Positions 31,312 through 48,685 of a DNA stretch of 49,023 nt are shown one piece after another. Under the pieces are notes generated by a model that was given only the letters and a program-made list of their open reading frames with translations, was not told where the DNA came from and made no database searches. The DNA is from Candidatus Micrarchaeota archaeon. GTDB taxonomy: Archaea > Micrarchaeota > Micrarchaeia > Anstonellales > JAGGVH01. Position 1 is the first letter of the stretch, and each line of letters begins with the position of its first letter. The DNA is taken from assembly GCA_021158105.1 (NCBI GenBank), contig JAGGVH010000016.1, positions 1 through 49,023 on the forward strand. Direction: 5' to 3'. The translations under genes were made by a program, and so were the position numbers.

Positions 31312-31779
31312 TCATTCTTGAACAGTGCCTGTTATTGGAACATCCGGCTTATATTCAAACTGCTGGCCAACAACTGAATATGTAAACCCTATGTTAAAAG
31401 AATATGGCTCGCCGGGATTAAAATTCTTATTCATGTTAATCTTGATTATCTTTTTCTCACTAGGATTAAGTTGTGATGACACTGTAAAACTGTCACTGTT
31501 TAGCCAGACATTATCGATCGTTATCGGGGCAGCCTTATTGTTCTTTATATTCAAAACTAATGTGCCGTCTGAATACAAAGAATGTGAACGAATGCCAATG
31601 TCTGAATAATACCAAAAATCTCTATGTCCTGATGATGACATCTGCGAAACCAGTGAAGGAATATTTGTAAAGAATATCGCTGAAGTTAATATTACAACCA
31701 GTACTATTGCCAGCATTAACAAGTATTCAGTTGCAGCCTGACCTTTTCTTTGTGCTTTTATGATATTGATAACTTTCAT
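31312..31779 (-). CDS. Class III signal peptide (type IV pilin-like) protein
   Basis: RKG|QAATEYLLMLAIVLVVIL (cleavage site, +5 Glu, hydrophobic stretch). Confidence 0.85.
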   Translation of the reverse strand: MKVINIIKAQRKGQAATEYLLMLAIVLVVILTSAIFFTNIPSLVSQMSSSGHRDFWYYSDIGIRSHSLYSDGTLVLNIKNNKAAPITIDNVWLNSDSFTVSSQLNPSEKKIIKINMNKNFNPGEPYSFNIGFTYSVVGQQFEYKPDVPITGTVQE

Positions 31780-31863
31780 GATGATAATAAAAAGGTAAGG
31801 TATTTAAGCGTTATCACTTTTGCTGAACAATACTATTCGTTTTCATAATAAAGGATTAAATTA

Positions 31864-31932
31864 AAAGTTTAGTTTAAAGTTTTACGCAAAACTTCAAAGT
31901 TTAGTTTGAAATTATGCAATTATTTATAAAGG
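31864..31932 (+). repeat. Repeat A, copy 1 (69 bp; includes the TATA box of ATPase 1)
   Basis: 65/69 identical to 33225-33293; half-sites AAACTTCAAA/TTTGAAGTTT. Confidence 0.95.
31923..31930 (+). promoter_or_regulatory. Probable TATA box (TTTATAAA) for leaderless ATPase 1 transcript
   Basis: About 24 bp upstream of ATG 31954; no RBS. Confidence 0.6.
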
Positions 31933-31953
31933 TTTTGGAATTTAATATAGTAT

Positions 31954-33216
31954 ATGGACATTATTGAAATTGAAAACCAAAATCCTTGGTGGAATGATGA
32001 GGAATGGTTCAAAAAAGACCAAAAACTTATAACGGTTGAGAGGTCTGCTGTCAGTCTTGAATGGAAGCCATTTAAACTGGCAGAAGGAATTTATATTGTG
32101 TACGGCCCCAGACAAGTAGGAAAAACAACATGGGTTAAACAGGAAATTAAAAAACTTACTGATAAAAAAAAATATAATATATTATACCTCGCATGTGATG
32201 GAATCCTTTCAAATAAGGAATTTAAAAAAACACTCATAGAAATCTTAAAATATAAAAATTTTAAATATATATTTCTTGACGAGGTAACATTCATTGAAAA
32301 TTGGGAACAAATAATAAAATATCTTGCTGATTTAGGTAAATTTGAAGGGAAAACTGTGGTATTGACAGGATCATCATCACTCAATGTACTTAGAAAATCA
32401 GAGAGGCTGACTGGAAGACTAACAAAACAAAAACGATTTTATCCTTTAACATTTAGAGAATTTGTTAATGCAAAGATTAACACATCACCAACCAATGAAC
32501 AGTTATTTTATTTATTTAGGAGATATCTAATTCATGGAGGAATTTTAAAAGTTATTAACGAATATGAAAAAAATGGGTTTGTATCCTCTGACACTGTAAA
32601 TGATTATAGTGGAGCAATAGACGGAGAACTTTCAAAGATAAGGCATTCATCACGAATATTTAATTATATTCTCTCGCGTATCATAAAAACAATGACAAAC
32701 ACAATTTCATGGTCATCTATAGCAGGATCAGAAATTTCACAACCAACTGTATCTGATTATATTGAAATAGGAAAACAGCTTATGTTTATTGAATATATTG
32801 AAAATCTAAATTCATATGACAAGTCTTTCACAAAAAACAAAAAAATTTATTTTGTCGATCCTTTTATGTTTTGGGTTTCGCTCCATAGGATAAAAAGAAT
32901 TGGGGATGTTGGATTGGATAGTATTTTACCATATGAAAGCAAACTTGTGGAAAATGCTGTCTTTTCAAATCTTTTAATATATATTGATAAAAAAATTAAC
33001 CGTTCTATGTTTAATATACGTGATCACTTATTTTATATCAAAGATAGAACTGGGGAGATTGATTTCTACATAAATAAAAAGAAGATTGAAGTAAAATGGA
33101 CTAATAATTTTATTAAAAAACCAGACATTTTATACTTAACAAAAAGCAGTTTAAGCAGGAATGAAATACCTGTATATCAATTTTTATATGATATCGAAAA
33201 ATATGTAGGGTTATGA
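31954..33216 (+). CDS. AAA_14/DUF4143 ATPase (paralog 1)
   Basis: QNPWW, Walker A GPRQVGKTT, Walker B FLDEV, TGSS, LTGR, PLTFREF, GG, KKIYFVD, EN, EIDF..IEVK. Confidence 0.92.
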   Translation: MDIIEIENQNPWWNDEEWFKKDQKLITVERSAVSLEWKPFKLAEGIYIVYGPRQVGKTTWVKQEIKKLTDKKKYNILYLACDGILSNKEFKKTLIEILKYKNFKYIFLDEVTFIENWEQIIKYLADLGKFEGKTVVLTGSSSLNVLRKSERLTGRLTKQKRFYPLTFREFVNAKINTSPTNEQLFYLFRRYLIHGGILKVINEYEKNGFVSSDTVNDYSGAIDGELSKIRHSSRIFNYILSRIIKTMTNTISWSSIAGSEISQPTVSDYIEIGKQLMFIEYIENLNSYDKSFTKNKKIYFVDPFMFWVSLHRIKRIGDVGLDSILPYESKLVENAVFSNLLIYIDKKINRSMFNIRDHLFYIKDRTGEIDFYINKKKIEVKWTNNFIKKPDILYLTKSSLSRNEIPVYQFLYDIEKYVGL

Positions 33217-33224
33217 AAAATCTC

Positions 33225-33293
33225 AAAGTTTAGTTTGAAGTTTTACGCAAAACTTTAAAGTTAAGTTTGAAATTGTGCAATTATTTATAAAGG
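33225..33293 (+). repeat. Repeat A, copy 2 (8 bp after the ATPase 1 stop)
   Basis: Direct repeat of 31864-31932 with 4 mismatches. Confidence 0.95.
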
Positions 33294-33316
33294 CTCCGGT
33301 TCTGGACAGATAAAAA

Positions 33317-33374
33317 TATTTCTTTCTGTTCATAGAAAGAAAATTGGTAAATTCTTTCTATTGGTAGAAAGAAA
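33317..33374 (+). repeat. Repeat B, copy 1 (58 bp, abuts the ATPase 2 stop)
   Basis: Identical to 34671-34728; half-sites TTTCTTTCT/AGAAAGAAA. Confidence 0.97.
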
Positions 33375-34634
33375 TTATTTTAACAGCCATTTCCAAACGG
33401 GCAAAACTTGAATCTCTCTACCACCTATCTTGATCGTATCCTCAGTGTCATATGTAATAATTTCATTTGAATGTTTGAACATCTTTGATGCTTCTAAAAT
33501 TCCTTTAACTTCTCTGTCATAATTGTCTTGATTTAAAGTGTATGTAACCTGAATAGATTTGTTTGATGTTATAAAATCACATTCAAACCCATTCTTATAA
33601 TAATTAATCATCTTTTCTCTTCTGCGTAGTTCCAAATAAACTATATTCTCCAACATTCTTCCTATATCTTTATCAGGCACATAATAATTTATGAAGGCAT
33701 GGTCCATCACATAATTCTTTTTTGAATATGAAAGCTCTTTTTTCCCTTTATGTCTTGGGGTTATTAAATCTAAGAAATAAACCTCTTTTAGCATACCAAC
33801 ATAACTATGAATAACTGATGTGCTTGATTTATAATTTAAACTTTTTGCAAAATTATGAAACTTATTCATAGAAAATTCTTGAGAATAATTTTTTATTATA
33901 TACTTCATTAACAAATCCATTAAATCTCTATTCTTTATATTATACCTTTCAATTATATCCCTGTAGAATATCGTTTTAAAATAATCATCAATTATGCCCA
34001 ACCGGTTTTCTAAAACAATTTCTGGAAATCCACTCAACCTAACATAATCGTCAAACATTTTTTTTACCTTATGCTGCAATTTTCCATATTCCCAATTCTC
34101 TTTAAGTTTAACTCCTCTAAAAACTAAAAATTCTTTAAATGAAAGAGGAAACAACTCTATAGAATACGCCCTGCCTCTTAAAGATGTTGCAATCTCTCTA
34201 CTAAGTAGATTTGAGTTTGAGCCAGTGATATAAACAGTATATCTTTGCTCCTGTAATCTCCTTATGAATTTGTCCCATCCTCTAATGTTTTGTATTTCAT
34301 CAAAAAAAAGTATTGGTTTTTTGTCTGGATATAATTCATTATATCCTTCTAATATATAATTCAACTGTTCCTTCCTTATGTCTGAAATCCTTTCATTTTC
34401 AAAGTTTATGTATAAAAAATCTGTTATATCTTTACCAACTTTCATCTTTTCATTCATTATTTGATAGAGCAGATATGTTTTTCCAGCTCTTCTCGGACCA
34501 ACAACTGTTATAATTTTATTTATTTTCTTAAACTTGGGTATTTTAACATCTCTTTTGTAAAAATCAGGTATTCCAGTATCATGAAACTCCATTATGATTT
34601 CTTTTATGAACCTTTTTAACTCATAATTTTCCAT
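33375..34634 (-). CDS. AAA_14/DUF4143 ATPase (paralog 2)
   Basis: GPRRAGKT, YINFE, FFDEIQ, TGSNS, LRGR, PLSFKEF, GFPE, RDIIERY, LEN.V..EL, ECDF..IQVT; start MENYE at 34634. Confidence 0.93.
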   Translation of the reverse strand: MENYELKRFIKEIIMEFHDTGIPDFYKRDVKIPKFKKINKIITVVGPRRAGKTYLLYQIMNEKMKVGKDITDFLYINFENERISDIRKEQLNYILEGYNELYPDKKPILFFDEIQNIRGWDKFIRRLQEQRYTVYITGSNSNLLSREIATSLRGRAYSIELFPLSFKEFLVFRGVKLKENWEYGKLQHKVKKMFDDYVRLSGFPEIVLENRLGIIDDYFKTIFYRDIIERYNIKNRDLMDLLMKYIIKNYSQEFSMNKFHNFAKSLNYKSSTSVIHSYVGMLKEVYFLDLITPRHKGKKELSYSKKNYVMDHAFINYYVPDKDIGRMLENIVYLELRRREKMINYYKNGFECDFITSNKSIQVTYTLNQDNYDREVKGILEASKMFKHSNEIITYDTEDTIKIGGREIQVLPVWKWLLK

Positions 34635-34670
34635 ACTATTATCTACTAAATAAACATTTTTAAACCTTTC

Positions 34671-34728
34671 TATTTCTTTCTGTTCATAGAAAGAAAATTG
34701 GTAAATTCTTTCTATTGGTAGAAAGAAA
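34671..34728 (+). repeat. Repeat B, copy 2 (upstream of the ATPase 2 promoter)
   Basis: 58/58 identical to 33317-33374. Confidence 0.97.
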
Positions 34729-34730
34729 GT

Positions 34731-34782
34731 TGTTTTCTGTAAAAAACAAAAATGTATGTTTTTGTTCTTTTGAAAAAACAAT
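34731..34782 (+). repeat. Repeat C, copy 1 (52 bp, abuts the ATPase 3 stop)
   Basis: 51/52 identical to 36050-36101; half-sites TTTTTGTTTT/AAAACAAAAA. Confidence 0.96.
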
Positions 34783-36020
34783 TATAGGATTGAATAAAAT
34801 ATATAAAACGGAAGTTTATACACCCCATCTTTTTCAGAAATATCCAATCCTTTATAAACAATTATTTTCTTGAACTTAGTTTTTATGTTATTAAACTGCT
34901 GGAACCCTTTTTTCTTTGAACCTATTTCAATTAGATAATCTTTCCAAACAAAATCAATATTATCTAAAAAATAAACATTTGTAAAATTAGATGCAAATAT
35001 ATCTTCAGTCATATTCCCAACAGTTTCTGACTCTGGGATCAACATCATATCAGCATACTCCTTTCTTATAGATGGGACAATAAAATAATATTTCCATTCC
35101 TTTCTTGCAGAAGATTTACCCATTTTGTAAGGCAATACCCTTTTTATGATTTCACCTCTCTCAAGAAGATTAAGCATACTACCCACCATACTCTTTGAAA
35201 CTCCAAGATCATTAGACAATACTGTATAATTAATCTTATTAGAAGCTGATAATAAGAGAATCATCCTTTCAAATTTATTCAGAGTGTATGTTTCCAGATT
35301 TCTTGACTTTGCAATGTCTGAATATATTACTTTTTCAACAAGGTCTTTTAATGTTTTAGGAGAATTATCAAACAGGTATGGTAGATTATTATTTATATAA
35401 TCATCAACAATATTTAATAAATTTGACACTTTATCATGAATATAGATATCATATCTCATTGCACTTCTCAATAAATCTTCACCTGGATTAAACCTTTCAA
35501 GTTTTACACCAGTCCTAATAAATATATATTCTCTAAATAACAAGGGGGGCAGGTGAACATAATTTGCACGTCTTGCAAGTTTTTGTTTGGATTCCTTAAT
35601 ATTTAAAGATGATGAACCAGTAATATAAAATTTCATTTTAGTATATTTATCATATGCAACTTTTATTTCATCCCACCAGTTAGGATAAGCATTGATTTCA
35701 TCTATAAACACTATTGCATCATCACCAAATAGATATTGAACCGCTTTTAAAACACTAAGTAAAGGTAACTTAACAGTGGATATCTCCTCCCCATGAATAT
35801 AAACTCGTTTACTTTCGTCAGATTCATTATATTTTTGGAACATGATAGTTGTTTTACCACTGCCACGTATACCATACATAATATTTAAACGTTTATTAAA
35901 CATATCATAAAAAAATCTTTTTTTATATTCAACATAATCTTTAGACGTCTTTTCATATCCAATCTTAGAATATTTAACAAATTCAACTGCATCAATAGAA
36001 TTTACTCCAAAATTATTCAT
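34782..36020 (-). CDS. AAA_14/DUF4143 ATPase (paralog 3)
   Basis: GIRGSGKTT, FIDEI, TGSSS, LARR, PLLFREY, wHTH LSNDLGVSKSMV, KYYF, IDF..IEIG; start MNNFG at 36020. Confidence 0.92.
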   Translation of the reverse strand: MNNFGVNSIDAVEFVKYSKIGYEKTSKDYVEYKKRFFYDMFNKRLNIMYGIRGSGKTTIMFQKYNESDESKRVYIHGEEISTVKLPLLSVLKAVQYLFGDDAIVFIDEINAYPNWWDEIKVAYDKYTKMKFYITGSSSLNIKESKQKLARRANYVHLPPLLFREYIFIRTGVKLERFNPGEDLLRSAMRYDIYIHDKVSNLLNIVDDYINNNLPYLFDNSPKTLKDLVEKVIYSDIAKSRNLETYTLNKFERMILLLSASNKINYTVLSNDLGVSKSMVGSMLNLLERGEIIKRVLPYKMGKSSARKEWKYYFIVPSIRKEYADMMLIPESETVGNMTEDIFASNFTNVYFLDNIDFVWKDYLIEIGSKKKGFQQFNNIKTKFKKIIVYKGLDISEKDGVYKLPFYIFYSIL

Positions 36021-36049
36021 GTTTATTATATATACATATATATTTATAA

Positions 36050-36101
36050 TGTTTTCTGTAAAAAACAAAAATGTATGATTTTGTTCTTTTGAAAAAACAA
36101 T
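36050..36101 (+). repeat. Repeat C, copy 2 (adjoins the ATPase 3 TATA box)
   Basis: Direct repeat of 34731-34782 with 1 mismatch. Confidence 0.96.
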
Positions 36102-36428
36102 GCTTTTAGATATCACCAATCTTGCTTGAAAAGAATTCTACTATTTGTCCACTATAACCATTATAATAAGATCCTTCCATAATAGGATTATACATTTTTT
36201 AGTTAAAAATTGTGATTAAACATTTGATGTTTAGGTTAAATGTTAACTGTTAAGGATAAGAGTTAGAGTGGTTAACTGATAGTTTTTATAAAACATTTTC
36301 AACAGTCAACCCCCATAAAACCCATAATAACCTTTTTAAAACTATATGATATAATATACTTGAATATTTAAATGAATGTTTGAAAATAAAAAGTAAAAAG
36401 TTTGATGTTTGAACGGAGGTGTCAGAAG

Positions 36429-36806
36429 ATGAAGATAAACATGTTGTTTGCAATGATGTTCATTGCATTGTTAATGATGAATGTGTGGAGTGATCTTGGT
36501 GATGGTGCCTTGGTTGATGATGATGATGGTGGTGATGGTGATGATATTACATTTGGTAGTCTTAGAAATGTGCTTTGTGAAGTTAAAAAGGGAATTGAAG
36601 AATTATTAGGACCGATCGCATTCCTGCTTGTTGTAATGGCAGCAGTGATTTATGCTGGTGGACAACTCGGTGATGCACAACTCAGGGCAAAGGCGCAGGG
36701 TTGGGCAGTCGGTGCACTCGTTGGTGCTATCATAGCGTTTGTTTTATATGCAGTAGGACCAACTATTATAACAAAGATGTTTGGCGCTACTGATTGTCCT
36801 CCATAA
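36429..36806 (+). CDS. TrbC/VirB2-like pilin, paralog 1
   Basis: Signal peptide, acidic linker, TM-(GGQLGDAQLRAKAQGW)-TM hairpin; GGAGGTG RBS. Confidence 0.65.
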   Translation: MKINMLFAMMFIALLMMNVWSDLGDGALVDDDDGGDGDDITFGSLRNVLCEVKKGIEELLGPIAFLLVVMAAVIYAGGQLGDAQLRAKAQGWAVGALVGAIIAFVLYAVGPTIITKMFGATDCPP

Positions 36807-36816
36807 GGTGAACATC

Positions 36817-37170
36817 ATGAAACCTCTTTTTTCTTTTATTTTGTTTTCAATGCTTCTTACCGGTTTTATCTTTGCATATGAAGATGAAGACAGTGGCATG
36901 ACCAAACTCACAGACGTGTTATGTAAAGTTGAAGCTCAACTTATTACTCTTCTCGGACCGATCGCATTCCTATTAGTTGTCATGGCGGCAGTCGTATACG
37001 GTGGAAGCCAGTTAGGTGATGCACAACTCAGGGCAAAGGGCCAAGGTTGGGCAGTCATGGCAATTGTCGGTGCAGTCATAGCATTCGTTATAATGATGTT
37101 CGGCCCTTGGCTGGTTGAAACCATGTTCGGCGGAAAATGTGAAGGGGGAGAATGGGTAGTAACTGAATAA
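36817..37170 (+). CDS. TrbC/VirB2-like pilin, paralog 2
   Basis: Shares LLGPIAFLLVVMAAV.Y.G.QLGDAQLRAK.QGWAV with paralog 1; AGGTGA RBS. Confidence 0.65.
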   Translation: MKPLFSFILFSMLLTGFIFAYEDEDSGMTKLTDVLCKVEAQLITLLGPIAFLLVVMAAVVYGGSQLGDAQLRAKGQGWAVMAIVGAVIAFVIMMFGPWLVETMFGGKCEGGEWVVTE

Positions 37171-37226: not shown

Positions 37227-37814
37227 ATGAGAAAGAAAGAATTTGTATATCTATACCTCTCAAACAATTATATTAAAGGTAAAATTAAATTTACACAGAA
37301 AGAAATAGCTGAAAAACTCAACATTTCTTTAAGCACAGTCAACAATGCTCTTCGCCCATTAGTAAAAATGAATTCTATTAAAGTTGGGCACATGGGATTA
37401 GAAATAATTGACTTTGAAAAGATAATGGTTTACTGGGCGACAATAAGAAACATTAACAAAGATATAATCTACAAGACATTCTGTCCATACAGACCATTAA
37501 GGATTGAATCGAGTTTGCCTTCAGATGTTATATTCACTGGATATTCAGGATATAGGATCTTAACAGGTGACGCACCAGCAGACTATGGTGAGATTTATGT
37601 TTATTCAAACAATCCAAAAGAAATCGAAAAAAGATTTCCAAAAAAGAAAGGACCCACCAATTTAATAGTGCTTGCATACGATGAACACTTAGAAATGTTC
37701 AAACAAAAAAACTGTGCACCTTTGCCCTTAATCTTTGTTGACATTTGGAACCTGCCGCAGTGGTATGGCAAAGATTTTCTTGATAAGATAAAAAATAAAC
37801 TTTTTAACAGGTGA
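37227..37814 (+). CDS. wHTH-containing AbiEi-like antitoxin/regulator
   Basis: FTQKEIAEKLNISLSTVNNAL HTH; C-terminal TGYSGY..IYVY..PLPLIFVDIW pattern; 4 bp upstream of an NTase gene. Confidence 0.65.
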   Translation: MRKKEFVYLYLSNNYIKGKIKFTQKEIAEKLNISLSTVNNALRPLVKMNSIKVGHMGLEIIDFEKIMVYWATIRNINKDIIYKTFCPYRPLRIESSLPSDVIFTGYSGYRILTGDAPADYGEIYVYSNNPKEIEKRFPKKKGPTNLIVLAYDEHLEMFKQKNCAPLPLIFVDIWNLPQWYGKDFLDKIKNKLFNR

Positions 37815-37818
37815 TTAG

Positions 37819-38448
37819 ATGAAGGAATACTGGCCAGAGCACGTTACACAAAAAAGTTGGGAAAGATTAACAAGATTAACAAAAGAGTTTGATTTTATAC
37901 TGATAGGTGGCTGGGCAGTTTATCTATACACTGGATTGCACAAATCAAAAGACATTGACATTCTCATCAATCTTGAGACATTATACTCTTTAAAAAGCAT
38001 GTATGACTTAAAGAAAAATGAACATCTTAAAAAATATGAGATTGAAGACAATGAGTTTGACATTGACATCTATGTCCCACATTTCTCACAACTTGCAATA
38101 CCTGTTGAAGATATCATTAACATGGACAACCCGATAATCAAAGGAATAAAGACTGTAACACCTGAGGTATTATTGACCTTAAAACAATCTGCATTTATTG
38201 ACCGCCACAGCTCAGTAAAAGGCGGTAAGGATGCTATTGACATAATAACACTGTTGATGTATACTGATGTTGACTTTGAAAGATATATCACTCTTCTTAA
38301 CAAATACAAACATAAAAATTATCTTAACAATCTGTTGCAAATCATACAATCTTTTAATGATATTGAATACACTGGAATGGACTTTATAAAATATAACCAT
38401 TGGAAGAAAGATATAATTAAAAAGATAAAAGCAAGCAAATCACTTTGA
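37819..38448 (+). CDS. Nucleotidyltransferase, AbiEii-like (putative type IV TA toxin)
   Basis: LIGGWAV..SKDID, DIDI, LLTLK, KDAID motifs of the pol-beta superfamily. Confidence 0.75.
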   Translation: MKEYWPEHVTQKSWERLTRLTKEFDFILIGGWAVYLYTGLHKSKDIDILINLETLYSLKSMYDLKKNEHLKKYEIEDNEFDIDIYVPHFSQLAIPVEDIINMDNPIIKGIKTVTPEVLLTLKQSAFIDRHSSVKGGKDAIDIITLLMYTDVDFERYITLLNKYKHKNYLNNLLQIIQSFNDIEYTGMDFIKYNHWKKDIIKKIKASKSL

Positions 38449-38472: not shown

Positions 38473-41037
38473 CTATTTATACCTTAAAAACGCCCCTATC
38501 CCAAAAAACATATTCTTAAACTGTGCACCTTCAGTAGTATTAGTAGAAATAAAATGATATTCAATGTTATGCCTATTAGCAAGATTAACAAGGTAATCAA
38601 TCAAAGGCATAGTTTCACTGTTAGGTTTAACTTTATCACCGGGCTTGATTATCCTGACATCCTCTTCACCATCATCGCCCTTAACAATCTCAACTGTATA
38701 ATCCAAATCTTCTGATATCAAAACAGAATCGGCTTTATAACTCTTTATCGCATCAATCACAGGCTTGAGACCATAAACTGCAAGCCCGCCGGTTACTGCA
38801 TCACCAATGAACCGCGACACCATCTTACGCTCCTGCATAGCCTCTTGTTCCATTATTATATCTTCACCTTTTCGTATGATTTCATTAATCCCTGCCTCAT
38901 CAGTATACCCAACATCTATAAGAGGTTTTAAAACCTTTATTTGATAATTAAACGGTTTCATCTTAATAAAATTCTCCTTGGCAGGACCGGGCCCGCCGAT
39001 CAAAACACCTTTAACCTGGTTTGGCATAAAATATCTATCCATGTACTCCCCTATCCGCTTATAATAATTTTCAATCTCCTCAGTAATCAAACGTTGATAT
39101 CGTGCTGCACTGTTATGAACAACAAAACTGTTTGCTATAAAATTTTTATATTCAGGAATAGTCAAATCATAAACTTCTTTTTCTATTCCTAACTTATCAA
39201 TGCTCGCTACTACTGCAGGAATAAGATCTGATGAAACTAAAACAGACATCTCATCCACAATTTCTTTATATCTCTTATAATTTGAGTCGCCCTTAAATGC
39301 TGATAACTGCTTTCTGAACACTGGCAAAACCTTTGCCTTAAACCTTTTACTGCCAATGCCCCTCTTTCCACTGAAAAACATGTTTAACCCGTCAAAATCC
39401 CTTGTTTTCATACCCATCTTATGTGCCTGTTTTAAAACATACCTGCCGTCCACTGGAACCTGCCTGATAACTTGTGTTACAGTTTCAGCTTTACATATCT
39501 TTTTACATCTTTCTTGTTTTGAAGACAAACTAAAACCTATTTCATTAGTAAAAATCTTAACAGATTCTAAATCAGATATGATCAACCCCCACTGCCTCTT
39601 TTTCTGGTTTTTATCAGTATGTTTCTCATAAACAGTTGATATGATCCCAAAACGTAATAACAACATTTGCAACTTTCGTATCAATTTTTCGGTAGTCATA
39701 GCAATTTCTATTTTTGTGTTTGCAATATATCCTTCCGCATCAAATAAACCCCTTATAAAAGCACTACAAACATTATTATCAGATTTCATTACAATCTCGG
39801 GTATATCTCTATTATCACTCTTTTCAAATACTGTTTTACTTATCTGTTTCAACATCCGTCCAAAATTCCTACCATAAACCCTTAATTCAAGATATGTCTT
39901 TTTTGCAAAGCTTCCTTTTTGTTTAGTCTTGTCGACCGTTCTTACTTTCGTATCGACTCCAAAAGTTTTTGAGATAAGTTTTGAATATAAGTCAACCAAT
40001 TCCTTTTTTGATTCATACAAAACCACTTTATCCCCATCAAAAGAACCATCACCTGTGAGATAACCTATAACCTGTGCGACATCACTGTTAAAATATCTAG
40101 GAAATTTGGGCAGTTTTGCTCCTTGTCTTCGCACCAGGCCAATCTTCAATGGAACCTCAACACCTTTGTGTGGTATGCATCTTACAGACAAAACCTTATC
40201 GCCTTTTTTAAGGTCTTTTGCCAACCTTTCCCCAATCCCATTCTCAGTGATTACAAAGAATCTATGTCCAGCAGTCGCCCTTATCTCCATTGTAGGATAT
40301 TTTGTTTTTATCAAGAATATTGACCTGTTCAAATTTTTAGTAACTACGGGGCAGATATAATCTTTAACTGAATAATCCTTAAAACTTGAAACTTTAAGAT
40401 AATCGTTCGGAAGAAGGTTTTTTATCTCAGTTATCACACCATCAGACTTTTGCACCAGCGTACCAGGATGCAAACATTGCCCACCGACGTGCACTTTAGC
40501 ATGTGCTGTTGAATTGACCTCTTTAAGCTTTTCAACTTCAGTACCTTTCAAGTAGGCCAGTGTAGCCTGCCTACCGTCCATCGCCAAAATTCCATAAACG
40601 TCAGTGTGTGATATCATACGTTCTAAAGGTTCAAGAAAGAATTTTGAATCACACCTATAAATCTGAACAGATAACGGTACCGGCGGCAGGATCGAAAACA
40701 GTTTAATGTCAACTTTTGCAGGGTTATCTGACACATTACCACAGAACACTGCAATACCGTTTTCAGGTGTCCGTCCAAGATTTTTAAGAAAACCTATAAC
40801 TTTCTCAAGTGCATCGCCCACATTAGTCCGTGTAGTCTTAGATTTAATATTGGTTGACTGGCTCCGCTCACTCCTTAATTTATTTGTTACTTCATGAAGT
40901 TGATACCCTGCAGGTATATAAACCGATATGAGCTGTGTACCACTACCCTTAAGTTTTCTTAAATAATCCAATTTACGTTTCAATTCAAACTTCTGATCCT
41001 TTGTAATGACCACTGGAACATCATCTGAAGCTGCCAT
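38473..41037 (-). CDS. prf1: Peptide chain release factor aRF1, intein-containing (about 399-aa extein)
   Basis: GTQLISVYIP, NIKS, YRCDSKF, GGQ|intein|SAARY, GGPGPAK, T.EG.QF..FGIGAFLRY. Confidence 0.96.
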   Translation of the reverse strand: MAASDDVPVVITKDQKFELKRKLDYLRKLKGSGTQLISVYIPAGYQLHEVTNKLRSERSQSTNIKSKTTRTNVGDALEKVIGFLKNLGRTPENGIAVFCGNVSDNPAKVDIKLFSILPPVPLSVQIYRCDSKFFLEPLERMISHTDVYGILAMDGRQATLAYLKGTEVEKLKEVNSTAHAKVHVGGQCLHPGTLVQKSDGVITEIKNLLPNDYLKVSSFKDYSVKDYICPVVTKNLNRSIFLIKTKYPTMEIRATAGHRFFVITENGIGERLAKDLKKGDKVLSVRCIPHKGVEVPLKIGLVRRQGAKLPKFPRYFNSDVAQVIGYLTGDGSFDGDKVVLYESKKELVDLYSKLISKTFGVDTKVRTVDKTKQKGSFAKKTYLELRVYGRNFGRMLKQISKTVFEKSDNRDIPEIVMKSDNNVCSAFIRGLFDAEGYIANTKIEIAMTTEKLIRKLQMLLLRFGIISTVYEKHTDKNQKKRQWGLIISDLESVKIFTNEIGFSLSSKQERCKKICKAETVTQVIRQVPVDGRYVLKQAHKMGMKTRDFDGLNMFFSGKRGIGSKRFKAKVLPVFRKQLSAFKGDSNYKRYKEIVDEMSVLVSSDLIPAVVASIDKLGIEKEVYDLTIPEYKNFIANSFVVHNSAARYQRLITEEIENYYKRIGEYMDRYFMPNQVKGVLIGGPGPAKENFIKMKPFNYQIKVLKPLIDVGYTDEAGINEIIRKGEDIIMEQEAMQERKMVSRFIGDAVTGGLAVYGLKPVIDAIKSYKADSVLISEDLDYTVEIVKGDDGEEDVRIIKPGDKVKPNSETMPLIDYLVNLANRHNIEYHFISTNTTEGAQFKNMFFGIGAFLRYK
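39112..40476 (-). mobile_element. Intein (455 aa) with LAGLIDADG homing endonuclease, in aRF1
   Basis: Block A CLHPGT, block B ATAGHRF, LAGLIDADG motifs IGYLTGDGS and FIRGLFDAEG, block F VYDLTI, block G NFIAN..VVHN followed by Ser. Confidence 0.96.
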
Positions 41038-43405: not shown

Positions 43406-44095
43406 TTAACTTTGGAATTCTTCCTCAATCTCAGGTTTAGGTGGCGAACGATAAAATATCATCTTAACCCCGGCCTTTAGTATCAGATATAACATTATCA
43501 ATACTGTGATAAGCAAAATCGTCCTGTAAACATCATACGATTCTGATACAACAGTTATCTCACCATCATCATCTGCAACTGATATCAGGTCAAACGTTGC
43601 AACATTATCTTTAAACGATTTGGCATACTGTGCAGACGATATACTATACGGAAAAATGATTTTATAGATAAATGTTGCATTCTTAAGCTTAAGGTCTCTT
43701 ATAAAGTTAGATGACGAACTAATCTGTGACCCCCCTGGTATGACTGGATAAATCTGCGGCAACGTATTAACAATAACTGTTGACTTTCTAAGTATGAGCC
43801 AGTCAAAACCATTAGTATAATTATAAAACCTGCCGTTCTGGAAATCTCGTTCATAAACAACAGTCATCCCATCAACATAGCATTGGTTCTTGCATGAATC
43901 ATTAAGCTGTTTGATAAATTCCTCTTTAGTAATAGAACTATTGTCATACAAACTAGAATAATCTATAAACAGTTTGACATGTGACGACCCGTCAACATTG
44001 ATTTCCTGTTGTAAAGTATAGTCAACTGCAAAAATTAATGAACTGGACAATGATAACAAAAACAATATTAATAACACTCTTATCATGCCCATCAC
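43406..44095 (-). CDS. Secreted protein with C-terminal membrane anchor
   Basis: N-terminal signal peptide (LIFA|V), C-terminal TM segment. Confidence 0.7.
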   Translation of the reverse strand: MMGMIRVLLILFLLSLSSSLIFAVDYTLQQEINVDGSSHVKLFIDYSSLYDNSSITKEEFIKQLNDSCKNQCYVDGMTVVYERDFQNGRFYNYTNGFDWLILRKSTVIVNTLPQIYPVIPGGSQISSSSNFIRDLKLKNATFIYKIIFPYSISSAQYAKSFKDNVATFDLISVADDDGEITVVSESYDVYRTILLITVLIMLYLILKAGVKMIFYRSPPKPEIEEEFQS

Positions 44096-44118
44096 ATCAC
44101 CACAAATTTCAATATATG

Positions 44119-45048
44119 TTAATATTTATAAACATTTGTGTATCTTGATGACTGGCTCCTTGCAACTTCTAAAAGTTTAAGCAGCACGATTAGTGATGCG
44201 ACCCCTACAATGATTTCCTTAGCATAAATGTTCTGGAATGCAACTGCTAAATAATTGAAGATGCTATGGAATATGATTGCAGCAATCAACCCATTCCTCG
44301 GCGATGAAAACAACTTCTTCTCAAACCCCAGTATGGTCATCATGACAAACAACCCGTGCGCTGTAGCAGTTATGTATGTCCTGTTAAGTATGATGCTGAC
44401 CCACGCACCCACACCGAGAGACAACGGACTTGCGATGACTGAGAAATAGATCAAGTTCTCAATAAAACTAAACCCTGCACCGATCGCAAACGCGGTGGTT
44501 ATTATTGATGGATAACCTTTAATCAACAACCCCTTGTTTTTGAATAATAAAACTGATAAATATTTTAACACCTCTTCAACCACTGGAGTGATTATTATCA
44601 CCATCAGAAAGTTTAATGGTAACAATACATATATACTCTGGTTGACAAGAAATGATAATATGCATGCCATTGCACCAATAGTTACCAGTTTGCCCACTCC
44701 CCTGAATATGTCATTGTTCATAAAAGCAAAGATTAATGATGAAAACAATAACGTAAAAACAGGAAACAGTGATGACAACAGTGAGATGATAAAAAGTTTA
44801 ATCCACATGTCATTAACACCTGGCAAAGTCATTAAATAATACGCCACACCAAATACCACAATTAAAATAGATAAAAGGCCCACCCATCTAAAATCCTTAA
44901 ACGGGCGGTTAACTTTAAACTTATCTTTAAGGACAAGTTTTACAATGGTTATGGTTGTCAGTAGATAAAAGAATATCAGCATGACCATTTCAATGAACGC
45001 CAACACCTGATCAATGTCCTGCCCGATGTTTCCAGCCTGGTTATACAT
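44119..45048 (-). CDS. PrsW-family intramembrane protease
   Basis: PVVEEVLK, GAGFSFIEN..Y, AHG, FHSIFN. Confidence 0.88.
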   Translation of the reverse strand: MYNQAGNIGQDIDQVLAFIEMVMLIFFYLLTTITIVKLVLKDKFKVNRPFKDFRWVGLLSILIVVFGVAYYLMTLPGVNDMWIKLFIISLLSSLFPVFTLLFSSLIFAFMNNDIFRGVGKLVTIGAMACILSFLVNQSIYVLLPLNFLMVIIITPVVEEVLKYLSVLLFKNKGLLIKGYPSIITTAFAIGAGFSFIENLIYFSVIASPLSLGVGAWVSIILNRTYITATAHGLFVMMTILGFEKKLFSSPRNGLIAAIIFHSIFNYLAVAFQNIYAKEIIVGVASLIVLLKLLEVARSQSSRYTNVYKY

Positions 45049-45059
45049 TGCAACACCTT

Positions 45060-45434
45060 CTATTTCCATACATAATATCTAACCTTTTTAAAAGGAAACC
45101 CTGGCACCCTGCGCGTGATTGAGACGACATTCGTACCCTTATGATAATGTGATGATGGGCAAGTGTTATACAGTTCAATGCCCTCGCCGTCATACTCTGC
45201 ACTGATACAATATCCACTGTCTTTTGTTAAACTGCTCATCACATCTTTTGCATCCTCAGTAACATCATAACTCCCTGTAACTTTATAAATCGTCTCAGCA
45301 AAATCGTTCGCAATCTGATACTCATACAACGTCGTATCAACTTTATAGGTGTTGGCAGTCAAAAGCAAAAAGCCTATCAACACAGACGCAAACATTAAAG
45401 AAAACACACTTTCCCAACTCATCATCCTAACCAC
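45060..45434 (-). CDS. Pilin-like protein (atypical class III signal)
   Basis: R|MMSWE followed by a hydrophobic helix; lies in the pilin cluster. Confidence 0.55.
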   Translation of the reverse strand: MVRMMSWESVFSLMFASVLIGFLLLTANTYKVDTTLYEYQIANDFAETIYKVTGSYDVTEDAKDVMSSLTKDSGYCISAEYDGEGIELYNTCPSSHYHKGTNVVSITRRVPGFPFKKVRYYVWK

Positions 45435-45447
45435 TCACACATGGACA

Positions 45448-45897
45448 TTAATCATCCACACACACTATCAACTTGGCAATAGACCTATTCATCACGCCAT
45501 ACCGCGTAATACACACCCTGTCATCATCAAAATCAAGATCGCACTGGATGTCACCGAGTTTGCCAGAACATAATGTAACATTTTTGTATTTCAACTTTGA
45601 AATCACTTTATCATACTCATTCTTATCCAATATCTTATGATCATTAAAACTACAATCATCATATGACCCAAACTTTATCAGATGGTCTGCAATTTCCAAT
45701 GCCCAGTTGTATTTTGAAACTGTCTTCATCCTAACCTCTGTCCTGTATGTAACATTAACCAATACAGTTATACATAAATAAAGTATCATTACAATGCCAA
45801 GCATGAAAATCATTAGATCAAACGAAATCATGCCGACCATACCTTTCAAACTTTGCTTTTTATTATTACCACGGCTCACGCTCTCCACCTTGCCCAT
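45448..45897 (-). CDS. Pilin-like protein (class III-type signal; start uncertain)
   Basis: KG..G|MISFDLMIFMLGIVMIL; later A..IADHL motif. Confidence 0.6.
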   Translation of the reverse strand: MGKVESVSRGNNKKQSLKGMVGMISFDLMIFMLGIVMILYLCITVLVNVTYRTEVRMKTVSKYNWALEIADHLIKFGSYDDCSFNDHKILDKNEYDKVISKLKYKNVTLCSGKLGDIQCDLDFDDDRVCITRYGVMNRSIAKLIVCVDD

Positions 45898-46237
45898 TAT
45901 CATACAACACCTTGGAATTAATAATCGGTACTGTAGCACTATTATACGAAACATTAGTAACAAGTTCGTTCCCAAACACTGGAGTCGTCCCCGGATACTT
46001 GTTTACTTTCTTGCCACCATAGTACAAATCAGAATATTTGGCCTTGAAATCATAATGTTCTGACAGGTAAACACTGTCATACCATGCATACATTGCATCC
46101 CTTGTGCGGTTTGCTGAATGAACGATGTTGCTCAACATGTCGTGCGACGCTGACAATATCATCAGTATTATGGTTAGCGCAACAAACGTAGCATACAACA
46201 TTTCAAGGGACAGTTGGCCTCTCGTCATATCTCCCAT
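45866..46237 (-). CDS. Class III signal peptide pilin-like protein
   Basis: RG|QLSLEMLYATFVALTIIL. Confidence 0.75.
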   Translation of the reverse strand: MGDMTRGQLSLEMLYATFVALTIILMILSASHDMLSNIVHSANRTRDAMYAWYDSVYLSEHYDFKAKYSDLYYGGKKVNKYPGTTPVFGNELVTNVSYNSATVPIINSKVLYDNGQGGEREPW

Positions 46238-46255
46238 TTACCCACCAATTTGCTA

Positions 46256-47293
46256 TTACTTTGTATACAAAGATATTATATCATTCACACTCAAAAGTCT
46301 GCCTACCACTGTGGAATTATCATCATTTCCAAACTCATGAAACACTTGGTCCCATGTAACATCACCATTACTGCCTATAACCTTTGAAAATGTAAACTCC
46401 TTGTTTACTGGAACATAACCCCCACTCATTGAACCCGTTTTTTTATCATACACAATAACACCAAACGGTTTGTCAAACGTTACGTTCGCAGAATATACTG
46501 TACTTTCGTCAGGACTGGTTTCCAATAACGGCTTATTATACCCTTCCCCAGAGAGTGATTTAATATTAATGTTGCTATCACACGACGACGTCCATGTGAG
46601 TTTTCTAAAATCAAACCCAGTCAATATAAACGGTTTACAATCTCTAATATTGACAGCATTGTAAACTGTATCAAAGTTTACATTGCCACTTAACATACTG
46701 CGCATTGAACCTAATGATGACATACAACCTTTAAAATCATCAGAATCATTTGTGCACACATAAACAACTGTATAATCGTTATCACCCAACCGTGCAATCT
46801 CATCAGCAAACAACATTAATGTGACCCCGCGTTTTAGGTCAGGTTTTATGTCAGGAACTACTGAGTAATTCATGACTGCATGGTGGTCTTCATCAACAGT
46901 GCACATCGCATTCTCGCAAGGGTCAAAAGGCAAAGAATCTAACAATGGACAGACTGTCCCAGTTATAACACCAGACGTGCCGCCTGTTAACACGCCAAGC
47001 CCTGCCTGGACAGCAGGATCGCATGCACAGTCCTTAACACAATACGTCGTCCTTAAAACCCACATAATATACCCGACCCACATCCCCTGTTCAACTATAC
47101 TGCCAAGGTTATGCTTGGCATCGAGCGTTTCATAATACATCTTCTCAGACAACAATGCTCTTGAATACTCTTGGGCATGATACATTTGTGAATATGTATA
47201 AAGAGCAAGCATGACTGCTGATGAAAACACCATCACTAAGACAAAAGAAAGAAAACCTTTCCTGTTGGATAACATCCCTTTTATGTGCCCCAC
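46256..47293 (-). CDS. Large Cys-rich pilin-like/adhesin protein
   Basis: RKG|FLSFVLVMV signal; multiple cysteines. Confidence 0.65.
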   Translation of the reverse strand: MGHIKGMLSNRKGFLSFVLVMVFSSAVMLALYTYSQMYHAQEYSRALLSEKMYYETLDAKHNLGSIVEQGMWVGYIMWVLRTTYCVKDCACDPAVQAGLGVLTGGTSGVITGTVCPLLDSLPFDPCENAMCTVDEDHHAVMNYSVVPDIKPDLKRGVTLMLFADEIARLGDNDYTVVYVCTNDSDDFKGCMSSLGSMRSMLSGNVNFDTVYNAVNIRDCKPFILTGFDFRKLTWTSSCDSNINIKSLSGEGYNKPLLETSPDESTVYSANVTFDKPFGVIVYDKKTGSMSGGYVPVNKEFTFSKVIGSNGDVTWDQVFHEFGNDDNSTVVGRLLSVNDIISLYTK

Positions 47294-47376
47294 ACAACAA
47301 GATAACCAGAAAAGAGTTAAATATTTAACGCAAGAACTATGATTAAAAGCATCAAATCATAAAAATTATAAACCGT

Positions 47377-47850
47377 TTAATGCAATTGGATCTCCTTTGC
47401 AATATTATACTGGTTGAACGTTATAAATTTCACACCTTTCTTAGGTATGTTGGCATAATCAGTCTTATTCCTTATAGCCATAAGATATTTCTGGATAGTG
47501 TTATAATCCTTTGTCTTCTTAACAATAATGTCAAAATAACCTCCTTTCTGCACTAGATTGACAATCAACGGTTCAGTTATTGGAAGATTAAACTGTTTAC
47601 AAAATTTAAGAAAATCTCTTGCCATGATACCGCTCATTGCAATGGGCTTTCCCCCTTTCCTGATTTCTATGTCCAAGTAAATCAGTTTCATAAGGTCAAC
47701 ACTGGGGTCGCCATAAAACTGCAAATAACTTAATGTCTCCTTATTGCGTATTGGCCGGATAATAATTTCAATTTTTGATCCTTTTTTTATGGGCTCCATT
47801 ACATTTAACAACATAGAATTAAAATTTTCTATTGCCCCGTAATTATCCAT
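47377..47850 (-). CDS. Hypothetical protein
   Basis: 157-aa ORF overlapping the upstream stop codon. Confidence 0.65.
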   Translation of the reverse strand: MDNYGAIENFNSMLLNVMEPIKKGSKIEIIIRPIRNKETLSYLQFYGDPSVDLMKLIYLDIEIRKGGKPIAMSGIMARDFLKFCKQFNLPITEPLIVNLVQKGGYFDIIVKKTKDYNTIQKYLMAIRNKTDYANIPKKGVKFITFNQYNIAKEIQLH

Positions 47851-48685
47851 ACGTTTCCCTCACATAATTATGAACCCTAAACATTAAAATCCTTTCTTTA
47901 CTGTTGTCATACACCTTCTGCCCTAATTCTTCTAATGATTCTGTTGGGTATTTTGCATAATATGCTTTCAAACCATACAGATACGCCATTTTTGCACTGT
48001 CCCAGTCATACGTTGGAACACCGCAAATGTTCCACCTAGAAATCAAAGGATTAATACCAAGATTCCTCTCAGCCGAATGGACGAATGTCACTGCATCAAC
48101 ATAATCTTTAAACTCATATGATGTATTAAAATGATATGTTGTGTTAACAATCATGTTAATCCTTTTTGTAGTATTAGCATAATCAACCATTGCATCGAGA
48201 AACTCCCAACGCAGTGCCAACATTACTGGCCTGCAATTGATTTCGCTGTGGAAACATACATTCCTGCACGACTGCTCATCATAACACCATGACTTGTAAA
48301 GCCCTAAAAATTTGATACATTTATCATAATATGTATCATTTGCCATAGAAGATTTAAACTTGTTAAACTGCTCTAACGACTCATTTAAAAGCGAAGATGC
48401 ATTGTCAGAAGTTAGCCCATAATAACAAACCAATACCTTTTTTATAACATTCTTGTCAGTTATAATTTCAGGCGTATCATACTTACCACTAGTTATTATC
48501 ATGTGGGGCTCATTGGAAATAGAAACTACATAATATTGTTCACCACAGTTAACATTTGACAACGAATAATACTGCTCGTTACCTATATGATGATACACAA
48601 AATGTTCTATCTGAAACATGTCAAGTGGATGCACTAGAACTGTTGACATTAAAATGAATAGGATAATCATATGATTGTTAGCCAT
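47843..48685 (-). CDS. Secreted Cys-rich hypothetical protein
   Basis: N-terminal hydrophobic signal; C..LG...C.D..SC..VC....C cluster. Confidence 0.7.
   Translation of the reverse strand: MANNHMIILFILMSTVLVHPLDMFQIEHFVYHHIGNEQYYSLSNVNCGEQYYVVSISNEPHMIITSGKYDTPEIITDKNVIKKVLVCYYGLTSDNASSLLNESLEQFNKFKSSMANDTYYDKCIKFLGLYKSWCYDEQSCRNVCFHSEINCRPVMLALRWEFLDAMVDYANTTKRINMIVNTTYHFNTSYEFKDYVDAVTFVHSAERNLGINPLISRWNICGVPTYDWDSAKMAYLYGLKAYYAKYPTESLEELGQKVYDNSKERILMFRVHNYVRETYG

Follow-up and report, generated by a model that had tools for sequence, protein, structure and literature searches.

The stretch of DNA analysed here (the window) comprises positions 1 to 49,023 of contig JAGGVH010000016.1, forward strand, from a Candidatus Micrarchaeota archaeon of the order Anstonellales (GenBank assembly GCA_021158105.1). 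It is contig C43 of a metagenome bin of 961,869 bases in 50 contigs that is 88.8% complete. Its gene content is that of a core archaeal chromosome, with RNA polymerase subunits, ribosomal protein S7, the thermosome, enolase, Nop56/58, ABCE1, aRF1 with an intein, and aEF-2. Within it lie three consecutive ATPase genes, g1, g2 and g3, each combining an AAA_14 with a DUF4143 domain, and each standing between two copies of a direct repeat that is its own (Table 1).

The copies of repeat A are 94% identical and recur at a distance of 1361 bp; those of repeat B are 95% identical, recurring at 1354 bp, and those of repeat C recur at 1319 bp. A search of the window for repeats recovered the three pairs and their unit lengths as the original prediction had described them, apart from an extension of repeat B to 65 nt (62/65) around the 58/58 core, and likewise the placement of one copy at the promoter and the other within 0-8 bp of the stop codon. 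In g1 the upstream copy extends as far as the TATA-like box, and in g2 and g3 it stops just 5' of the box. Each of the three repeats occurs exactly twice in the genome, and the modules adjoin one another, with 23 nt between the second copy of A and the first of B, and a 5-nt overlap between the second copy of B and the first of C. The prediction had also reported no transposase or integrase in the window, and none was found among the 30 window open reading frames (ORFs) scanned with Pfam, a set that does not extend to the ORFs at 43406-48685. The sole Phage_integrase (tyrosine recombinase) match of the genome is on contig C21, and none falls inside a module.

Table 1. Features of the three-module locus in window coordinates; TATA-like boxes were assigned by eye
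Feature	Position	Strand	Remarks
Interval holding the three modules	31780-36401		4.6 kb, between a class-III-signal-peptide gene (31312-31779, -) and two T4SS-pilin-like genes (36402-37170, +)
Repeat A, upstream copy	31864-31932	+	Two-site operator of g1, internal period 32; includes the TATA-like box
TATA-like box of g1, TTTATAAAGG	31923-31932		Inside the last 10 nt of the upstream copy of repeat A
g1	31954-33216	+	AAA_14 + DUF4143 ATPase (PADLOC PDC-S01 family), 420 aa
Repeat A, downstream copy	33225-33293	+	65/69 identical; starts 8 nt past the g1 stop; same TATA-like box present
Repeat B, downstream copy of g2	33317-33381	-	Overlaps the stop codon; two dyad sites, TTTCTTTCT-N5-AGAAAGAAA
g2	33375-34634	-	AAA_14 + DUF4143 ATPase, 419 aa; strongest PDC-S01 match (E 3e-104)
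TATA-like box of g2, TTTAAAAA	34657-34664	-	Putative; 23-30 nt before the ATG, between repeat B and the gene
Repeat B, upstream (operator) copy of g2	34671-34735	-	62/65 identical, with a 58/58 core
Repeat C, downstream copy of g3	34731-34782	-	Abuts repeat B (5-nt overlap); touches and overlaps the g3 stop codon
g3	34782-36020	-	AAA_14 + DUF4143 ATPase, 412 aa
TATA-like box of g3, TTATAAATAT	36040-36049	-	Putative; 20-29 nt before the ATG
Repeat C, upstream (operator) copy of g3	36050-36101	-	51/52 identical

The three proteins match AAA_14 with 90.7-132.5 bits (gathering cut-off 27) and DUF4143 with 34.1-45.6 bits (cut-off 28.1). These are their only Pfam domains, with no match to a transposase or to Cdc6/Orc. 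The profile hidden Markov models (HMMs) of PADLOC also place g1 (E 5e-28) and g3 (E 8e-27) with g2 in the PDC-S01 family. Across 14 family sequences G51/K52, D112/E113, E329 and D353 are invariant, and IEVK is the consensus without being invariant; we take these residues to be the Walker A and Walker B motifs and the E...D...E-x-K signature of the PD-(D/E)xK type. The NTPase and PD-(D/E)xK-type residues accordingly appear intact. The best relatives of the family profile in the PDB are the archaeal ATPases 2fna (E 1e-9) and 2qen (E 3e-4), to which their depositors assign no function, and its match to TnsC chains is weak (E 5e-5), at a generic AAA+ level.

One survey ranks PDC-S01 as the fourth commonest defence system across prokaryotes, with validation pending, and describes it as abundant, patchy, enriched in Archaea and moved between domains (PMC12988326). 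In a cold-seep preprint, a PDC-S01 representative is one of eight candidates tried in E. coli B, and falls outside the four of the eight that were protective (bioRxiv 10.1101/2024.09.26.614923). DUF4143 itself has been classed as a PD-(D/E)xK family of unknown function (PMC3424549). In the open papers on DUF4143, COG1373, archaeal AAA_14, PDC-S01 and long target site duplications, taken without their supplements, no flanking repeats, operators or gene mobility are described, in agreement with the earlier statement that no such system was known.

Read in the orientation of its gene, each repeat (hereafter R) consists of two related sub-sites, most of them with internal dyad symmetry; in repeat B, for example, TTTCTTTCTA-N4-TAGAAAGAA is present twice. 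The long inverted pairs in the window's repeat list reflect these internal dyads, and the ends of the modules are direct repeats. In this genome all 10 operator-type repeats of AAA_14/DUF4143 genes have an internal period of exactly 32. Across the order the period is 31-34 in 17 of 23 repeats, and a strong period of 30-34 was detected in 11 of the 23, as against 5 of 2000 random genome windows. The edges of the repeats match the outer edges of the two sites within 0-9 nt. A TATA-like box either follows the repeat directly (g2 and g3) or occupies its last 10 nt (g1), at 20-31 nt ahead of the ATG as judged by eye. The start of the second copy falls in a range from 11 nt ahead of the stop codon's last base to 22 nt beyond it.

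The same motif is retained between orthologues at 54-65% protein identity from other families of the order (g3/L085, C22/L081, C36/L027 and C42/L083, where C denotes contigs and genes of this genome and L other loci). In two of these pairs, g3/L085 and C42/L083, only one member has the 3' copy; in genome G011 the orthologue of g3 keeps this operator motif on its upstream side alone. Paralogues that lack the 3' copy likewise keep paired sites upstream of the TATA box, for instance on C36, C25, C23, C42, C22 and C46. The paired sites at the TATA box, their period of 32, and the motif kept with orthologues therefore indicate that the upstream copy is the gene's own cis-control region, of which the 3' copy is, on comparison of the two, a block duplicate. 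Paired sites in helical phase, conserved along with the protein lineage, are the marks of an autoregulatory operator, and both are found here; the gene product probably binds R.

Copies of one repeat are 93-100% identical to each other, whereas site 1 and site 2 within a single repeat are 56-94% identical. Hence R has been duplicated or homogenised as a block, rather than being kept alike by selection for binding alone. In the orthologous modules L034 (genome G006) and L050 (G003), the stretch of homologous DNA is bounded on either side by the outer edge of a repeat (794-2139 against 795-2141), with 73.6% identity. Their repeats are 94% identical within each genome and 78-87% in the four comparisons between genomes, with species-specific substitutions common to both copies of one genome. 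Similarly, g1 and its orthologue in G011 (62% protein identity) are both repeat-flanked (65/69 and 75/78), with a core in common. Orthologues nevertheless sit in different, non-syntenic gene neighbourhoods. Family genes average 30.6% GC, compared with 36.9% for other ORFs (p = 1e-13), which suggests a foreign character and was counted in favour of their being cassettes.

The arrangement recurs throughout this genome, which has 25 DUF4143 matches and 24 full-length family ORFs, plus fragments at contig ends. In a flank test, the sequence from -350 to +150 of each ORF start was compared with that from -40 to +350 of its stop by ungapped seed-and-extend alignment (9-10-mer seeds, +1/-2 scoring); control genes were mechanically defined ORFs, and related genomes are not independent of one another. 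Scores of at least 45 were reached by 11 of the 25 testable family ORFs, with two further repeats of 20-21 nt, while a single one of 531 other ORFs of 200-700 aa scored at least 30 (Fisher p = 5e-16, on 11/23 after two weak family hits, C1 and C46:71544, were dropped). An unbiased blastn scan, in which start codons played no part, collected all direct-repeat pairs 200-8000 nt apart. With coding-paralogue pairs set aside from the 37 found, units of 1.07-1.7 kb bracket 12 AAA_14/DUF4143 genes (C11a, C11b, C14, C2, C20b, C25, C26, C35, C39, g1, g2 and g3). They also bracket four of four short genes of ~340-370 aa (C37, C20a, C42c and C46b), which match ATPase_2, AAA_14 and the MCM_C winged helix. 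This makes a total of 16 repeat-flanked ATPase modules in a 0.96-Mb genome. Family genes or their fragments lie at the ends of contigs C25, C36, C5, C6, C48, C30 and C3; hence the modules seem to break assembly, and the copy numbers are lower bounds.

Across 40 relatives in the same order, family matches number from 0 to 36 per ~1-Mb genome. Flanking repeats were found at 7 of 26 loci in a first set, and at 8 of 48 in a second, against 0 of 48 controls, so the check proposed with the original prediction, a search for repeats around archaeal homologues, found them to be recurrent in the order. Among the eight positives of the second set, L087 is a case of coding paralogy, and the repeat of L070 is confined to the gene's final 41 nt. 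The distribution is uneven, with several in G030, 2 of ~27 in G017 and 0 of 8 in G010, and the positives include near-complete genomes of 5-7 contigs (G024 and G011). Beyond the order, bacterial and archaeal loci encoding proteins 35-46% identical to g2, which served as the single query, also exceeded controls. On genome contigs, 17 of 75 scored at least 20 (3 of 87 controls) and 8 of 75 at least 30 (1 of 87); on metagenome contigs, the corresponding counts were 14 of 79 (1 of 54) and 8 of 79 (1 of 54). At these distant loci the repeats are for the most part host sequence: the opening 15-20 codons of glycosyltransferase genes (L117 and L129), the tail of a permease gene (3' end, L193), hairpins of terminators (L126, L197 and L202), and stretches of 38/38 nt (L127) and 81 nt (L153). 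The metagenome loci L236 and L249 have long palindromic repeats of an element type, and at L111, L199 and L195 the repeats may stem from tandem paralogues rather than insertion duplications. Several hits of the flank test were rejected: L066 (two genes), L087 and L108 owe their scores to C-terminal coding similarity between tandem paralogues, and L135, from an uncultured Bacteroidetes metagenome-assembled genome, to a (CTGAAAC)n microsatellite of ~80 nt on both sides of the family gene. Neither a relative of g2 closer than 46% identity in the genome, metagenome and viral contig collections, nor an exact match to the 34-nt core of repeat B in metagenome contigs, was found.

With the recurrence established, the repeats can hardly be artefacts of assembly, or chance matches in AT-rich DNA. 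Suspicion of this kind is natural in a 50-contig metagenome bin whose family genes are often at contig ends and whose repeat B has a 58/58 identical core. Yet the pairs are for the most part imperfect, every gene has a repeat of its own, a lone control in 531 resembles them, independent genomes, including the 5-7 contig assemblies, have the same layout, and orthologous modules share the motif. Public sequencing for the window amounts to 7 DNA runs, and none of RNA, from 4 hydrothermal-vent metagenome studies; the four sets compared with the window (X1, X2, X5 and X6) gave only short Logan contigs with a depth of ~1-8. In these short, low-depth contigs all listed joints have sides of at most 24 nt, save for a 44-nt skip at 36360-36405, outside the modules; and a contig from a different study spans the junction of the second copy of A and the first of B. 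An artefactual origin is accordingly close to negligible.

Comparison with the same-genus genomes G001 and G002 shows sites at which modules are absent. In both (contigs C6 and C134, respectively), the orthologues of the genes flanking g1-g3 adjoin without the three-module block, with ~120 nt between the flanking start codons in G001, as compared with 4.6 kb here; these empty sites are too diverged for base-by-base alignment. Other modules provide clearer cases. The ATPase_2-type gene C20a lies between 39-nt repeat copies at C20:24603-25774 (1172 bp), and in G002 (C12) the same ferredoxin and KaiC/RadA-like flanking genes are ~105 nt apart, with neither the module nor an R motif in the spacer. 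The AAA_14/DUF4143 gene C35a forms a 1.43-kb module between 60-nt repeats, and in G001 (C30) the convergent flanking genes abut (ORF ends at 279 and 276 of the locus), with no remnant of it. The interval of C11a measures 3.8 kb here, 416 bp in G001 and 951 bp in G002. Hence, to judge from these alignments, the gene and both its R copies come and go together, and the empty site retains no R. Larger segments in the congeners at the C20a, C46b and C37 sites encode ordinary host genes, such as deoxyhypusine synthase, an epimerase and an aminotransferase, and do not count as evidence of hot spots.

A few members of the family also bear duplications of their surroundings. The 69-nt repeat of C20b is the promoter region between two divergent host genes, with a 1375-bp insert that holds the ATPase gene only, and G001 (C17) has a single copy of this 69-nt sequence between the same two gene starts. 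By this alignment, C20b is flanked by a true target-site duplication of ~69 nt; the usual length of such duplications is 2-15 bp. C22 is bracketed by a 21-nt repeat, the right copy of which is the 3' end of an intron-containing tRNA-Ser(cga) (Rfam, and ARAGORN with its intron option). C11b (C11:40450-43385, locus L269) has ~177 nt duplicated on both sides of the module as well as an inner 36-nt operator repeat, and its left outer copy was later split by an MNT (NTP_transf_2 + HTH) and HEPN pair with a 51-nt duplication of its own. We read the duplications at C20b, C22 and C11b, from their sequences, as insertion signatures. Across the remaining loci, no more than three family genes lie within 400 nt of a tRNA; hence targeting of tRNA genes is not general. 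The tRNA call beside C39 is doubtful, and plain ARAGORN found no tRNA in the window. The genome has 23 tRNAs by ARAGORN with the intron option, and all eight listed on ten contigs carry introns of 28-180 nt.

These comparisons modify the idea, put forward with the original prediction, that the modules are cassettes whose ends resemble attL and attR. What has stood is the existence of discrete, gene-specific site-gene-site insertions that are absent from syntenic positions. The att analogy fails for the operator-type modules, as their repeats are the gene's own two-site operator instead of target sequence, and the C20a and C35a empty sites hold no copy. The single repeat copy that was expected in an empty site is found for C20b, in G001.

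It could be that the repeats serve regulation only. The 3' R would then be a second operator, used by an oligomeric ATPase to loop out the gene or to block read-through or convergent transcription, with the genes moving by ordinary horizontal transfer and the copies being kept alike by gene conversion and co-evolution with the protein. Two sites in helical phase beside a TATA box, a motif kept between orthologues, the persistence of paired upstream sites in paralogues without a 3' copy, and the same layout in ATPase_2-type genes without a nuclease domain are all consistent with this. Four observations argue otherwise. Firstly, the spacer and loop positions that are free to differ between sites 1 and 2 are identical between copies, an identity that selection for binding alone would not predict. 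Secondly, R and the gene come and go together, from sites that lack R. Thirdly, members of the family have true target duplications. Fourthly, the abutment of modules within 0-23 nt is left unexplained. Regulation without mobility is thus an unlikely account of the whole, albeit one that deserves to be kept in mind.

The explanation to which we assign an even chance of being correct is that these are autoregulated one-gene insertion cassettes, of the form R-gene-R, with terminal direct repeats borne by the element itself. The gene encodes an AAA+ ATPase that has a winged helix and, at its C-terminus, a domain of the PD-(D/E)xK type. R is its own control region, consisting of two recognition sites, usually dyad-symmetric, 32 bp (three helical turns) apart at the TATA box, to which the protein would bind through its winged helix in order to control its own promoter. 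The copying of R whole at the stop codon would give terminal direct repeats that are akin to long terminal repeats (LTRs) in layout and travel with the cassette. The second R may come from terminal redundancy, if the inserting form were cut from a circular or head-to-tail intermediate holding one R; alternatively, or in addition, recombination between the copies may homogenise them. Recombination between two copies would also yield a circle of ~1.3 kb with one R. The terminally redundant form is favoured by the lack of R in empty sites, the block-identical copies and the coincidence of repeat edges with site edges. Cutting and joining may involve the ATPase-nuclease that the cassette encodes, the obvious candidate for the inserting agent, or else a paralogue supplied in trans.

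Several results weigh against this explanation. The congeners share only ~70% DNA identity, and hence insertion and loss cannot be told apart from the empty sites alone. Twelve of the 24 full-length paralogues here, and most in G017 and G010, have no 3' copy. Outside the order only ~10-20% of genes score, and many of the repeats there are heterogeneous host sequence. Plasmid records with a homologue number 252, of which 174 are from Acinetobacter, and none of three inspected plasmid copies has a clear flanking repeat; two close Flavobacteriales orthologues share coding sequence only, with no defined element ends. No genome contains a pair of closely similar family copies, and all paralogues are long-branched (g2 and C26 were outside that comparison). 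With each repeat present only twice, there is therefore no sign of recent transposition within the genome of the insertion sequence (IS) type, and bursts of the IS kind, which should leave near-identical copies behind, are disfavoured. A diverse pool of cassettes that pass between genomes seems to describe the dynamics better.

Further difficulties arise from which sequences are bracketed. The short ATPase_2-type genes carry the same end repeats without having a nuclease domain, and long repeats also enclose three cassettes free of ATPase, namely the MNT-HEPN pair, a pair of ParE-like type, and an ORF of 202 aa. The ParE-like pair is at C42:5352-7712 (locus L276), where three copies of one 70-100-nt repeat bracket two different cassettes, in the order R, ATPase_2-type gene, R, ParE/Gp49-like toxin with a small upstream ORF, and R. 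The 202-aa ORF (C36:16233-16879) is the only control to score at least 30 in the flank test, with a 38-nt direct repeat and a 609-nt unit; by eye, it has a D...EVK motif that looks restriction-fold-like. At C11:22949-27177, a 4.2-kb segment of four ORFs is bounded by a 38-nt repeat (92%). Its left copy reaches into the 5' part of a tRNA-Leu that has an intron, and the segment is possibly an integrated element of the conventional kind. Since both nuclease-less genes and ATPase-free cassettes are repeat-bracketed, an inserting activity that belongs to the host or acts in trans is kept in play.

Taken to its conclusion, this would mean that a host repair or replication process inserts small cassettes of whatever kind, selfish or defensive, into these reduced genomes with long duplications, that the ATPase family is simply the commonest passenger, and that R-gene-R arises from circular or tandem donors and owes nothing to the protein's activity. 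Such capture by the host would accommodate the MNT-HEPN pair with its 51-nt target duplication, the ParE-like and 202-aa cassettes, the segment at tRNA-Leu, and the variation of duplication lengths from 21 to ~177 nt. It would also fit C20b, at which the 69 nt span exactly the whole divergent promoter region, possibly through the survivorship of insertions that preserve their neighbours. Set against it are the 16 of ~20 intergenic repeat-bracketed units of 1-1.7 kb that hold an ATPase of two related families, the identity of the repeat in those units as the gene's operator, with a fixed 32-bp architecture rather than target sequence, and the enrichment over neighbouring genes that extends to bacteria and other archaea. 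We therefore regard host-driven capture as improbable, without treating it as negligible.

A far less plausible proposition is that the modules are integrated mini-replicons, in which the ATPase would be an ORC-like initiator, R an iteron origin, and the module a captured plasmid-like replicon of ~1.3 kb. The AAA+ domain with a winged helix, the MCM_C winged-helix matches of the short forms, and the iteron-like direct sites at fixed spacing would suit such a scheme, since one gene and one set of sites would make a minimal replicon. However, g1-g3 have no Cdc6/Orc match in Pfam, and R consists of direct sites upstream of a promoter TATA box rather than inverted sites of the ORB type around an AT-rich unwinding element. 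Nor did any of 15 short metagenome contigs (1.3-2.5 kb) have a terminal overlap, and only one relative was found in viral contigs.

Returning to the one-gene insertion cassettes, a stronger version is that they constitute a new minimal class of mobile element. The element's own product would recognise the operator at both ends, excise a one-R circle or a terminally redundant linear form, and insert it by means of staggered cuts tens to more than 100 nt apart. The operator 'LTRs' and long duplications would then be the footprints of this process, short nuclease-less ATPases and toxin-antitoxin cassettes would be mobilised in trans, and the rank of the family as fourth-commonest 'defence system' would largely reflect selfish spread. 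This is a tentative proposal, and we think it rather more likely to be wrong than right. If the cassettes are real, the abundance of the family in variable 'defence islands' would partly reflect selfish spread, and some of the 'defence systems' counted in surveys of genomes may be selfish cassettes. R would represent the first cis-element for the PDC-S01 family and, possibly, a route of DNA mobility not yet described. The ten period-32 operators among the 16 repeat-flanked modules of one 0.96-Mb genome also offer candidate pairs for a collection of orthogonal proteins and operators.

The surroundings of the locus have features of their own. The two genes at 36402-37170 (+) encode tandem paralogous small membrane proteins with a weak T4SS_pilin match, the gene at 31312-31779 (-) is archaeal pilin-like, and this trio is syntenic in both same-genus genomes. 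The idea of a fourth, decayed module at 36102-36400 found no support: the short ORF at 36104-36196 (-) resembles the NDYSGAIDGE stretch of g1 (an inverted pair), and its family HMM match has an E-value of 0.21. Beyond the pilin-like genes that border the ATPase block, 37227-38448 (+) encodes an HTH_24 winged-helix protein followed by a weak DUF6036 nucleotidyltransferase match, which may be a small toxin-antitoxin-like pair. At 38473-41037 (-), the aRF1 gene (eRF1 domains 1-3) is split by an intein with LAGLIDADG homing-endonuclease domains. The window's other low-GC stretch (GC 0.30) contains a 433-aa ORF without a Pfam match at 8981-10282 (-).

We place the architecture in none of the known classes of mobile element or defence-gene organisation. 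Integron cassettes, att-flanked integrative elements, LTRs and pdif modules each share something with it, and each has a defining feature that it lacks. As to the proteins, g1-g3 are members by HMM of PADLOC PDC-S01 (COG1373), with the same combination of ATPase and PD-(D/E)xK domains as described for it. The archaeal ATPases of PF01637 (2fna and 2qen) are the closest structures to the family profile, and the short repeat-flanked genes match this family, but no cognate DNA sites are known for them. The pairing of an AAA+ DNA-binding ATPase with a restriction-fold nuclease recalls TnsC and TnsA of Tn7-type elements, in line with the weak TnsC profile match; here, however, a DDE transposase and terminal inverted repeats are both lacking, and the duplications are of 21 to ~177 nt rather than 5 bp. 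With DNA transposons and IS in general, the target-site duplication at C20b is shared, whereas there is no known transposase, the ends are direct repeats, and near-identical copies are absent from the genome.

Elements that rely on site-specific recombination offer other parallels. Those that are att-flanked, target tRNA genes and use tyrosine recombinases also have direct repeats of tens of nucleotides, and the position of C22 at the 3' end of tRNA-Ser and the duplicated target of C20b are reminiscent of them. They differ in that the 1.3-kb unit here holds the ATPase gene only, without a recombinase, of which the genome has one, and in that the operator-type repeats belong to the element rather than the target, as the C20a and C35a empty sites indicate. 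The Xer-dependent pdif modules of Acinetobacter plasmids and other integrative mobile elements exploiting Xer (IMEX) have one conserved type of 28-bp Xer site, inverted, and use host XerC/D. They too are very small modules of one or two genes, including toxin-antitoxin pairs, bracketed by recombination sites and found in arrays; by contrast, the repeats here are direct and specific to each module, and the inspected copy on an Acinetobacter plasmid lacks a clear repeat.

LTRs likewise are element-borne direct repeats at both ends that contain promoter elements, and are alike within an element while diverged between related elements. The resemblance is in layout only: the modules, with repeats of just 40-70 bp, belong to a prokaryote, have no reverse transcriptase, and presumably originate at the DNA level. 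Integron cassettes, too, are single-gene units in abutting arrays, each with its own partly palindromic site of ~50-140 bp, and can form circles with one site; they differ in that they have one attC, are mostly promoterless, and require IntI and attI. In the modules described here, the full site is found on both sides, as a promoter-proximal operator with its own TATA-like box, every cassette encodes the same kind of protein, and there is no integron integrase nearby.

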